A stretch of 64,000 nt of DNA. Origin: a virus. The position numbers were made by a program, and so were the translations under genes. Below, in pieces: positions 17,210 to 62,036 of the stretch; position 1 is the stretch's first letter, and every line of letters begins with the position of its first letter. The stretch covers positions 1 to 64,000 of IMG/VR virus record IMGVR_UViG_3300033143_003083; one strand, given 5' to 3'. The notes beneath the pieces are model-generated. The model made no database searches, was not told the DNA's origin, and saw nothing but the letters and a program-made list of their open reading frames with translations.

Positions 17210-17284
17210 TGGAAGGTGTGGGGGGATTCGAACCCCCATGCAACGGATTTGCAATCCGCGACCTAGCCGTTCGGTCACACACCT
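17210..17284 (-). tRNA. tRNA-Cys(GCA)
   Basis: Cloverleaf AGGTGTG/CACACCT, GCGGA-TTGCAAA-TCCGT, GGGGG-TTCGAAT-CCCCC, U73, encoded CCA. Confidence 0.95.
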
Positions 17285-32755: not shown

Positions 32756-33214
32756 TTACCTTTCCTCACAACTTGGATGACCATATCGACTAAAGAATCT
32801 TAATGGTCGCATAAATTTACCTTTGACAAAAAATCCCCAGTTCTGAATCTTCCGTCCACAGAACAAGAGTGTAATCGTACCATGCTTCGGGTTCCCCACA
32901 TAATGTGTATGATCTGCCTTACGGTATCTCACTGAACCAGTTGGCAGCAGTTCACAGTGTATGCCACCGTATTCGCCTATTGATGCCACATCAGTGTAAC
33001 CACCCCACAAAACGACTGTCAGGAAGTTAAACGCATGGTTGTGCATGTAACGCTTATCATCAGACCGATACCACTGATGTATTCTTATTGAGAAGAAGTA
33101 AAAGTTAAATACCCATCTTCTCATATAGGGACATTCTTTATTCCCTAACTTTTCATTCCATCTGATACCAAATGGCTTGATTCGTTTCTTGTCTGTATCA
33201 GCAGGATTAGACAT
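32756..33214 (-). CDS. Cupin-like phage protein
   Basis: YMRRW, IH...SDD...HNH.F.F..V..GGY, H. Confidence 0.55.
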   Translation of the reverse strand: MSNPADTDKKRIKPFGIRWNEKLGNKECPYMRRWVFNFYFFSIRIHQWYRSDDKRYMHNHAFNFLTVVLWGGYTDVASIGEYGGIHCELLPTGSVRYRKADHTHYVGNPKHGTITLLFCGRKIQNWGFFVKGKFMRPLRFFSRYGHPSCEER

Positions 33215-33217
33215 GAT

Positions 33218-33361
33218 TTATTTCTTACGTTTCTTAAAATACAGACCAGTAAGATAACCAGCAATGCCGATCACTATCATCAACACAACAAACAAATCTG
33301 TTGCCATACTGAAATCAATACCGAAAATTGTTTTACCTATTTCTGTTTTACTTTCCATCAT
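33218..33361 (-). CDS. Small membrane protein
   Basis: GAGG SD, single TM followed by basic tail. Confidence 0.5.
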   Translation of the reverse strand: MMESKTEIGKTIFGIDFSMATDLFVVLMIVIGIAGYLTGLYFKKRKK

Positions 33362-33378: not shown

Positions 33379-33503
33379 TGGTCGCGGGGGGTCGCATCGA
33401 ACAACCAACCTTCCTCATGTTAAACTCAGGTACACGTCTGCACTAACAGTACTAGCAACCGTCTGAGTCCTCAAGGACGCTCTGCCAATTGAGCTACCCC
33501 GCG
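33379..33503 (-). ncRNA. tRNA-like RNA (125 nt) with 56-nt structured insert replacing the anticodon loop
   Basis: CGCGGGG/CCCCGCG-A-CCA acceptor, GCTC-AATTGGCA-GAGC D arm, TCCTT/GAGGA stem, GGTTG-TTCGATG-CGACC T arm. Confidence 0.8.
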
Positions 33504-33522: not shown

Positions 33523-33897
33523 TCAATCAGAATTTTGCCACATCATCATATCACGTATAACCGTAATGTTGTTTGGATTATGTCGGTAATCTTCAGGATG
33601 CATAATGAAATACAACCATGCAGGTTCATCTACATCAACCAATGAAATTTCTTTACGTTCATAGAAACTACCATTACTTTCAATCAAATCAAGTGTGGCT
33701 AATACATTATCATTAACTTCATATACTTCACCAAAGATATGTCCGGTGTCTATAGATTCAACCACAGCAGGAAAAGCACCCAATGAAAACATATGATACT
33801 TTTCTCTGGTGATAGTTTTTACAATCAGCTTACTATCATACAAATGATGATGATTAGGAAATCCCTTCATCAAAGAACCATATACAAAAATTTTCAT
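33523..33897 (-). CDS. Gamma-glutamylcyclotransferase (AIG2-like)
   Basis: IFVYGSLMKG..NH, GEVYEV, LD.IE, YER. Confidence 0.85.
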   Translation of the reverse strand: MKIFVYGSLMKGFPNHHHLYDSKLIVKTITREKYHMFSLGAFPAVVESIDTGHIFGEVYEVNDNVLATLDLIESNGSFYERKEISLVDVDEPAWLYFIMHPEDYRHNPNNITVIRDMMMWQNSD

Positions 33898-33898
33898 A

Positions 33899-34291
33899 TC
33901 ATAACTCCACGAATGCTTGGTATTCTTCACTGAAGAAGTGTTGATGGTTTCTTACAATAACAGATCCAAGACTGTACAAGTTAATCAGAAATTCAGTCAT
34001 ATCATCTTCTTTCAATCTACTCTGTGAATAACCTATTCTTTGATTAAATTCTATGCTATGACCAAAACGAGTTTTTATATAATTAGCTAAACAGAATTCT
34101 GATAACTCTTTAAACAGGGGTCTGTTATCAGCATATGTAATAGTCTGTGATATCACCACATACATTAAAGTTCTGAAACCATAATCATCACTATAACTTA
34201 AACGCTTGTGAAGTTTTTCAAACAAATCTTTGCTGCCATGCTTATCAGCCAGAACAATTATTTGTTTGATTTCTAATTCAATGAATGGCAT
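33899..34291 (-). CDS. Hypothetical protein (ends FVEL)
   Basis: TAATG-coupled ORF. Confidence 0.55.
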   Translation of the reverse strand: MPFIELEIKQIIVLADKHGSKDLFEKLHKRLSYSDDYGFRTLMYVVISQTITYADNRPLFKELSEFCLANYIKTRFGHSIEFNQRIGYSQSRLKEDDMTEFLINLYSLGSVIVRNHQHFFSEEYQAFVEL

Positions 34292-61959: not shown

Positions 61960-62036
61960 TGGTTGCAGGGGGTGGATTTGAACCACCGACCTTCGGGTTA
62001 TGAACCCGACAAGCTACCTGACTGCTCCACCCTGCT
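61960..62036 (-). tRNA. Initiator tRNA-fMet(CAT)
   Basis: TCGGG-TTCATAA-CCCGA with three G-C pairs, 1:72 mismatch, TTCAAAT T loop, CCA. Confidence 0.95.

Follow-up and report, generated by a model that had tools for sequence, protein, structure and literature searches.

The window analyzed here, a 64,000-nt stretch of a 77-kb virus record, carries on its minus strand a 125-nt gene that is shaped like a tRNA (33379..33503, with RNA position 1 at 33503 and position 125 at 33379). All of the parts described below lie on this strand. The 5′ strand of the acceptor stem, CGCGGGG (33497..33503), pairs with CCCCGCG (33383-33389), the first pair being C1-G72, and is followed by a D arm, GCUC-AAUUGGCA-GAGC (33479..33494), that contains A14, G18, and G19. 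The 5-bp anticodon stem is formed by UCCUU (33473..33477) and GAGGA (33412-33416), the T arm is GGUUG-UUCGAUG-CGACC (33390..33406), and the gene ends in the discriminator A73 and an encoded CCA (33379..33382). All cloverleaf arms are fully paired, and U8, A9, G26, a variable loop of AGGUU, U54U55C56, and A58 are in place as well. A first-pass annotation had listed an intact acceptor stem with A73-CCA, a D arm, a 5-bp anticodon stem, and a T arm, and all of these are present at 33503..33379; the T loop, which it had called slightly atypical, is canonical (U54 U55 C56 G57 A58).

Fifty-six nucleotides separate the two strands of the anticodon stem in place of a 7-nt loop, starting GAGG-ACUCAG and ending CUGAGU-UUAACAU, and these ends of the minus-strand reading match those given in the first pass. 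The segment UUAACAU (33417..33423) lies directly 5′ of the 3′ anticodon-stem strand and has the sequence of a canonical anticodon loop, reading U32 U33 A34 A35 C36 A37 U38. It supplies the anticodon, AAC (33419-33421), that the first-pass annotation had been unable to place. The intron-aware tRNA search that had been proposed as a check, ARAGORN with the -i option, calls the element as a 76-nt tRNA-Val(aac) with a 49-nt intron (33424..33472) between tRNA positions 31 and 32, removing RNA positions 32-80. This is the sole extra call that ARAGORN -i makes in the whole 77-kb record. Default ARAGORN and Rfam searches of the window find only a tRNA-Cys (17210-17284) and a tRNA-Met (61960-62036) and miss the element; Rfam at E ≤ 10 over the 400 nt around it returns nothing relevant and no RF00005 match. 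No Rfam family matches the element at the gathering score or at E ≤ 10, and it falls in none except, loosely, tRNA. Its fold has a z-score of −2.5. The first 26 nt fit the pattern of initiator-type tRNA-Met genes in other phages, and the acceptor is that of such genes save for the G at position 72: 26 of the 28 other IMG/VR matches to these 26 nt are CAU tRNAs with C1×A72, where the window has G72.

The element abuts its neighbors, which lie on the same strand. Directly upstream is an ORF resembling γ-glutamyl cyclotransferase (GGACT/AIG2; GGCT-like; 33523-33930), whose stop is 19 nt from the 5′ end of the tRNA-like sequence. In the direction of the minus strand the element is followed by a small ORF for a hydrophobic 47-aa protein (33218..33361), the Shine-Dalgarno sequence of which starts a few bases past the CCA, and then by a gene for a 152-aa cupin-fold protein (32756..33214). 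No promoter or terminator consensus flanks the element. The cupin protein bears the phrog_4786 label "cysteine dioxygenase" and has no Pfam match. Its predicted fold is confident (pLDDT 91) and is that of a plain cupin with a His-rich metal site; a fold search with this model returned generic cupins only, and viral hypothetical proteins only from the Atlas. As the first-pass annotation had stated, the window also encodes an RNA ligase and a Pnk, here a T4 Rnl1-type ligase at ~50.8-51.4 kb and an adjoining ORF with an AAA_33 kinase domain (Pnk-like).

Conservation and fold of the insert

A distant blastn search with 1 kb around the element had only one match among reference phages, to the T4-like Paraglaciecola Antarctic GD virus 1 (GD1), and this match was confined to the element, at 74% identity. 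The GD1 copy sits in a stretch without annotation, is called by ARAGORN -i as tRNA-Val(gac) with a 50-nt intron, and is the only extra call made by that search in the 150-kb GD1 genome. Just downstream of it lies gp194, to which the window cupin is 58% identical, and a short hydrophobic ORF can be read at the position matching the 47-aa ORF of the window. An RNA ligase gene is found two genes upstream of the GD1 element; the other twelve GD1 neighbors have no homolog in the window, except for a distant RNA ligase. The cupin gene is the conserved downstream partner of the RNA gene. A third copy of the element, on IMG/VR contig L026 (continued in L021), is called by ARAGORN -i as tRNA-Val(aac) with a 49-nt intron.

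We cut the three sequences (W, for the window element, GD1, and L026) into the same parts and compared them pair by pair. Each proposed pair is standard in all three, and compensatory changes on both sides are found in the anticodon and T stems and in three insert helices, P1, P2, and P3; covariation among phage homologs had been suggested as a check in the first pass, and it is present with all pairs canonical. The anticodon stem is UCCUU/GAGGA in W, CCUUU/GAAGG in GD1, and UCCUU/AAGGA in L026. In the window, the 5′ strand of P1, GGACUCAG (33463..33470), pairs with CUGAGUUU (33422-33429); its 6-bp core, ACUCAG/CUGAGU, is swapped for compensatory pairs in GD1 (P1, GACAUUG/CAAUGUU) and L026 (GCAUCG/CGAUGU). 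P2 is the hairpin ACGGU-UGCUAGU-ACUGU (33446..33462), the stem of which becomes UUGAGGU/ACUUCAA in GD1 and AGGG/CUCU in L026, with loops of UUCUAGU and UUUCUAGAU, respectively. The mini-hairpin P3, GCA-GACG-UGU (33432..33441), has the stem GCU/AGC in both relatives and the same GACG loop. Because the three helices are standard-paired in W, GD1, and L026, the insert is a three-way junction atop the anticodon stem, not a simple hairpin. The motifs CUAG in the 7-nt P2 loop and GACG in the P3 loop are fixed in all three copies; the former is notable because CTAG is ~7-fold depleted in the 77-kb record (G000; 38 observed versus 255 expected from base composition). These phages share only ~58% identity in the neighboring protein, yet the insert helices covary. 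Within the segment that would hold the anticodon, the wobble base varies (A, G, or U) among orthologs and A35-C36 is fixed; W and L026, two of the four closest members, have A there.

Because it is the unique ARAGORN -i call, has a z-score of −2.5, and is kept with compensatory changes in two independent phages, the window element is more than a product of chance. We conclude that this is a genuine and conserved RNA gene of phages, with the shape of a valine tRNA whose anticodon loop is opened by a folded 49-base domain.

A family of tRNA-shaped genes linked to the cupin

The window cupin has more than 130 metagenomic homologs, the closest at 75-85% identity, and we surveyed the DNA around cupin homologs at 80 metagenome loci and 78 viral loci. 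A strict T-arm motif occurs on the same strand within 1 kb upstream of the cupin in 43 of the 68 loci with enough upstream DNA, on the opposite strand in none of the 68, and in the equivalent downstream interval in three. The linkage of tRNA-shaped genes to the cupin is therefore specific for strand and side. Overall, well over a hundred phage and metagenome loci carry, upstream of the cupin and on its strand, tRNA-shaped genes with expanded anticodon loops, which range from 8 to ~200 nt, and in many relatives the tRNA-like 3′ end is 0-70 nt from the cupin start. These upstream genes are mostly abnormal as tRNAs and fall into four recurring kinds.

The Val-like kind has a 5-bp anticodon stem, a 5′ linker of 0-7 nt, a helix enclosing 20 to ~180 nt, and a 3′ linker of 5-8 nt whose last bases, abutting the 3′ stem strand, are N-A-C-(A/G/U)-N, with 3′ ends such as UUUAACAU, UUGACAA, UGAACAU, AUGUACAU, UAAUACAU, AAUACAC, and CUUACAU. 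In one member, L154, sequence reading indicates that excision leaves the canonical loop CUUACAU. The Ile-like kind keeps a canonical 5′ half-loop, CUGAU(A/G), including U33, and carries after it an insert of 76-133 nt on the classical 37/38 side; it was seen at L061, L062, L064, L065, L073, L084, L088, L092, and L127. Several Ile-like inserts hold a T-arm-like GGUUCGAAAC together with a CUAAAG motif, as if a partial second tRNA were nested inside. Short-loop members have little or no insert and loops of 8-12 nt (L146, UGAAACAU; L050, UGUAUACGA; L108, CAUAAACGA; L039, UUGGAAACAU; L140, 12 nt). Finally, arrays in other lineages include some tRNA-like genes whose anticodon arm consists of a 7-8-bp stem closed by a tetraloop, UUCG or GAAA, along with minihelices that have neither D nor anticodon arms and a normal-looking tRNA(CUA).

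Across the family, position 33 differs between members (U, A, or G), and most genes have C1 paired to G72, then A73. Counting distinct tRNA-shaped genes that are nearest upstream of the cupin and have loops other than 7 nt, we found 24 that keep N-A-C plus two bases before the stem, for which the chance expectation is ~1 in 16, and nine of the CUGAU type. Three members (L030, L033, and L095) regain U33 by no contiguous excision. We define the family as tRNA-shaped genes that lie on the same strand as, and at most ~1 kb upstream of, a homolog of the 152-aa cupin, that have C1-G72 and A73, and whose expanded anticodon loop places N-A-C two nucleotides ahead of the 3′ stem strand; the window element has all of these features. 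A search of IMG/VR found no intron-less ortholog of it, and our other DNA pattern scans gave nothing or only chance matches, such as a tRNA-like gene with a 23-nt anticodon loop starting GAAGAC on an unrelated IMG/VR contig (L006 ~684-790). Among public sequencing runs, none of RNA was listed as containing the element, and a single DNA run matched it by a small share of words.

The family extends to complete and cultured phages. Two complete phage genomes (181 and 327 kb) contain canonical tRNA-Val(GAC/UAC) in tRNA clusters and a cupin-linked Val-like gene elsewhere. The cupin is also present in the cultured Caulobacter phages CcrColossus and CcrPW, Rhizobium phage RHph_Y1_11, and Brevundimonas phage Bajun. 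In CcrColossus (NC_019406, ~241.46-242.0 kb), two tandem, unannotated tRNA-shaped genes (L223 1407-1682 and 1695-1943) lie in a 675-nt unannotated gap upstream of gp358 and gp359, which are annotated as "putative rRNA methyltransferase" and "cysteine dioxygenase," respectively. Their inserts are ~170-200 nt long, and each ends in GGAUGAAGA before the 3′ anticodon-stem strand.

Several loci contain further unusual genes. The tetraloop-capped genes include L035 611-690, L036 1474-1552, L043 1894-1972, and L041 1753-1829; they have no anticodon, their stems show covariation from locus to locus, and Rfam nevertheless gives them tRNA scores of 48-53 bits. Minihelix-like units composed of an acceptor stem and T arm only belong to the same arrays; L041 has two (~1700-1750 and 1834-1893), one ending in ACCA and the other in ACAA, and such units occur also in L052 and L035. 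Between the tRNA-like array and the cupin in L041 (1983-2492), and equivalently in L052 and L035, is a small methyltransferase-like gene that weakly matches the Eco57I family and in which an in-frame TAG is conserved following ...HFM. Because a suppressor tRNA(CUA) gene of normal appearance is located a few hundred bases upstream, local amber read-through or recoding is suggested in these phages. At L021 195-345, directly after the first interrupted gene and before the cupin, is a second interrupted tRNA-like gene with the anticodon stem GCAUU/AAUGC and UUAACAU before the 3′ strand; it has ~35 extra nt in the variable/T-stem region, and its T stem has only three clean pairs. At L037 2340-2522, L055 567-744, and L056 120-297, tRNA-like genes carry a large insert in the D loop, with the common motif GCAAGGAC...GCGACCGGCGAG and an anticodon loop of GUGAAAA or GUGAAUU.

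Comparison with known RNA classes

Measured against canonical tRNA (RF00005), the window element has the cloverleaf and the tertiary nucleotides; it lacks a contiguous 7-nt loop and a score at the gathering threshold. Rfam at the gathering score on 20 related loci returned RF00005 only, with some relatives scoring across their inserts. A single contiguous excision restores a canonical tRNA in W, GD1, and L026, as for a generic intron-containing tRNA, and fails to do so in several other family members. The first-pass annotation had set aside a group I intron and a tmRNA, and both can be rejected: the insert is 49 nt long with no group I match in Rfam at the gathering score or E ≤ 10, the ARAGORN tmRNA search was negative, and D and anticodon stems are present.

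Other routes of excision were also considered. No bulge-helix-bulge intron (3-nt bulge, 4-bp helix, 3-nt bulge) could be drawn on inspection of the structure, and no member of the PF01974 splicing endonuclease family (EndA-type) was found in W, the complete GD1 genome, or the L026/L021 records. The geometry of RNase III does not fit, as the necessary cuts would leave a 4-nt 5′ overhang on P1 and not the 2-nt 3′ overhang of that enzyme. Self-cleaving ribozymes (hammerhead, twister, pistol, hatchet, and HDV-like) gave no Rfam match, and a hammerhead reading of CUGACGAG in GD1 and L026 was rejected, as a GAAA partner is missing and W does not retain the motif (CAGACGUG). YrlA (RF02553) was rejected because there was no match to the window element at E ≤ 10 and because the RNA ends form an acceptor stem, and homology to T4 rnaC/rnaD was rejected on comparison by eye with NC_000866, where those RNAs have neither D arm nor anticodon stem. 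We rejected the CUAG loop as a working amber anticodon, given an arm roughly twice as long as normal, and CAU as a shifted Met anticodon, given the covariation of the adjoining 31-39 pair. Recoding of TAG in the phage of the window was likewise rejected, since few ORFs are gained when TAG is taken as sense and 8 of 52 long ORFs terminate with it.

Discussion

We favor the reading that the window gene derives from a valine-type tRNA and encodes a tRNA mimic that is stable, stays unspliced, and does not decode, over that of an intron-bearing pre-tRNA, a preference that we hold tentatively and that falls a little short of probable. Because no promoter or terminator consensus flanks the element, its RNA probably shares a transcript with the GGCT-like gene upstream and with the small ORF and cupin gene downstream. 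RNase P and the usual 3′-end enzymes would release it as a ~125-nt species, since every element of the tRNA L-shape is kept. The main determinants of valine identity for valyl-tRNA synthetase are A35, C36, and A73. With A73 present and A35-C36 held in its native register by the 3′ stem strand, the RNA may still be recognized or charged by that enzyme. The anticodon loop is opened on its 5′ side, where U32/U33 can be drawn into helix P1, and the three-way junction lengthens the anticodon arm by more than 13 bp, a geometry that should keep the RNA out of the ribosomal decoding site. A partner would probably bind the RNA through its inserted domain. The conserved, co-oriented cupin metalloprotein gene is the strongest candidate for a functional tie, and we propose that the RNA could be a substrate, carrier, decoy, or regulator of cupin function.

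Evidence from the family leans toward a mimic because U33 is unconserved, orthologs with little or no insert still have 8-12-nt loops, and normal tRNA-Val coexists with the Val-like gene. In the two complete genomes with ordinary tRNA-Val, the Val-like gene would therefore not be needed for decoding. The tetraloop-capped sister genes, on their 7-8-bp stems, cannot decode, which shows that these modules do hold non-decoding look-alikes. As far as is known, bacterial-type tRNAs that decode hardly ever carry A34, those for Arg excepted, and the A wobble base of W and L026 thus counts for a non-decoding mimic. The compensated helices with their fixed CUAG and GACG loops, the strand- and side-specific linkage to the cupin, and the lack of PF01974 in W, GD1, and L026/L021 also speak for it. 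Selection across the family appears to keep the A35-C36 register, A73, the acceptor end, and the L-shape, and not U33 or the size of the loop; together with the valine identity, this pattern fits an RNA that is recognized by tRNA-handling enzymes and is not required to read codons. The first-pass annotation had offered either a tRNA mimic or decoy or a protein-spliced, intron-containing tRNA, and the proposal is partly supported, with the family leaning to its first half.

Several observations count against a mimic. Removal of the insert from W, GD1, and L154 leaves a flawless cloverleaf with a 7-nt loop (Y32, U33, NAC, A37), which is what an intron model predicts, and the Ile-like class retains a canonical 5′ half-loop that includes U33. 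The Rnl1-type ligase and Pnk-like kinase of these phages could, in addition, reseal a cut tRNA. The element might accordingly be read as a genuine pre-tRNA-Val(AAC), from which a host or phage endonuclease removes the 49-nt insert before the phage Pnk and Rnl1 heal and seal the ends to yield a 76-nt decoding tRNA. We regard this as possible but unlikely, and the more specific claim that the three-way-junction insert is removed by a protein-only cut-and-rejoin pathway, with an endonuclease followed by the phage's own Pnk and Rnl1, as slightly less likely still. For splicing speak the perfect 76-nt tRNA-Val that ARAGORN -i obtains from W, the restoration of GD1 and L026 by the same search and of L154 by reading, the variable wobble base (A/G/U) beside a fixed A35-C36, a conserved insert structure that could serve as a recognition signal, the ligase and kinase genes of the window and the ligase gene two genes upstream in GD1, and the precedent of short non-group-I "enigmatic introns" in Lak megaphage tRNAs (PMC6784885). 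However, close relatives would require different splice points (31/32 in W and GD1 versus 33/34 in L026), and L030, L033, and L095 regain no U33 by any contiguous excision. Inspection yields no bulge-helix-bulge, W, GD1, and L026/L021 contain no EndA-like gene, the 4-nt 5′ overhang on P1 does not suit RNase III, and the insert is too small for self-splicing and matches no ribozyme family. The absence of an intron-less ortholog from IMG/VR, the normal tRNA-Val genes of complete relatives, the non-canonical loops (8-12 nt) of short-loop orthologs, the tetraloop-capped sister genes in the modules, and the wobble A in two of the four closest members all point the same way, and on this evidence we retain the unspliced mimic as the preferred reading.

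The close packing of the locus raises another explanation, that the element is mainly a cis-acting, tRNA-shaped punctuation mark at which cleavage by RNase P and at the 3′ end sets the 5′ end of the small-ORF/cupin mRNA or couples translation to tRNA processing, with the released RNA having no trans function of its own. The 19-nt spacing from the upstream stop and the Shine-Dalgarno sequence right after the CCA are consistent with it, as are the lack of flanking promoter or terminator consensus, the 0-70-nt distance between tRNA-like 3′ end and cupin start in many relatives, and the arrays of anticodon-less tRNA-like units and minihelices that precede methyltransferase and cupin genes elsewhere. 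A pure cleavage mark, however, would need no N-A-C register, no A73-CCA, and no conserved CUAG and GACG loops with covarying stems; these features point instead to recognition of the released RNA, and we consider the cis-acting explanation improbable. A decaying tRNA pseudogene with a random insertion would account for the failure of default tRNA finders and Rfam to detect the element. All four tRNA arms are intact, however, the insert helices covary across three phages, and the family recurs with conserved synteny at well over a hundred loci, so that decay is already contradicted by conservation and has, in our estimate, a probability close to nil.

The nearest item in print is the set of short, non-group-I "enigmatic introns" of Lak megaphage tRNAs, which are unexplained (Devoto et al. 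2019, PMC6784885). Both concern phage tRNA genes that are broken in or near the anticodon loop by short, conserved, non-group-I sequences and that are visible only to intron-aware tRNA finders. The Lak genes belong to Prevotella megaphages and ours to T4-like and jumbo phages of Proteobacteria, and the likeness drawn here is one of description. In the window, moreover, the insert lies at the 5′ edge of the loop and forms a defined three-way junction, and the family differs in having non-canonical short-loop members and a conserved cupin neighbor, which argue against simple introns. A literature search returned no description of a cupin-linked family, a three-way-junction insert, or an N-A-C register rule.

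Other comparisons are more distant. In plant RNA viruses, valylatable tRNA-like structures such as the TYMV TLS combine valine identity and tRNA shape without decoding. By analogy, the window RNA may act in a similar manner, but the TLS is found at the 3′ ends of RNA genomes, its acceptor arm is pseudoknotted, and its anticodon loop has the normal 7 nt, whereas the window RNA is encoded by a free-standing DNA gene and has a normal acceptor stem and an opened loop. T4 species 1 and 2 (rnaC and rnaD) are likewise small, stable, non-coding RNAs beside phage tRNA genes, and species 1 has a T arm and an acceptor-like end; they have neither D arm nor anticodon stem, whereas the window RNA is a complete cloverleaf with an insert. 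YrlA, a non-coding RNA that phages also have, contains a tRNA-like module on which tRNA enzymes act. Its ends form a Ro-binding stem and its tRNA-like part is internal, whereas the ends of the window RNA form an acceptor stem with CCA; in CcrColossus a sub-threshold YrlA match of 25 bits spans the two adjacent tRNA-like genes. The comparisons with T4 stable RNAs and YrlA drawn in the first pass thus hold as analogies only. The group I introns of bacterial tRNAs (tRNA-Leu(UAA), tRNA-fMet, tRNA-Arg, and tRNA-Ile) also interrupt the anticodon loop, but they are ~200 nt or more in length and have a P1-P9 core, in contrast to a 49-nt insert that matches no intron or ribozyme in Rfam.

The usual view of tRNA genes in phages is that they help with codon usage or serve as replacements when the host deploys anticodon nucleases. 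The genes described here point to a large unannotated class of phage tRNA-shaped genes with synthetase-type identity marks and expanded or capped anticodon arms, a class that travels with a cupin enzyme and often also with a methyltransferase. Standard annotation misses them, and they are unannotated in both GD1 and Caulobacter phage CcrColossus, which are cultured. If the RNAs are spliced, they would reveal a tRNA splicing route in bacteria-infecting viruses that nobody has shown; should removal proceed by protein-only cutting and rejoining, a bacterial virus would carry out enzyme-catalyzed tRNA splicing, and the long-known T4-type RNA repair enzymes would gain a housekeeping substrate. If they are mimics, they would point to an RNA-protein function in T4-like and jumbo phages in which the RNA serves as decoy, carrier, or sensor.
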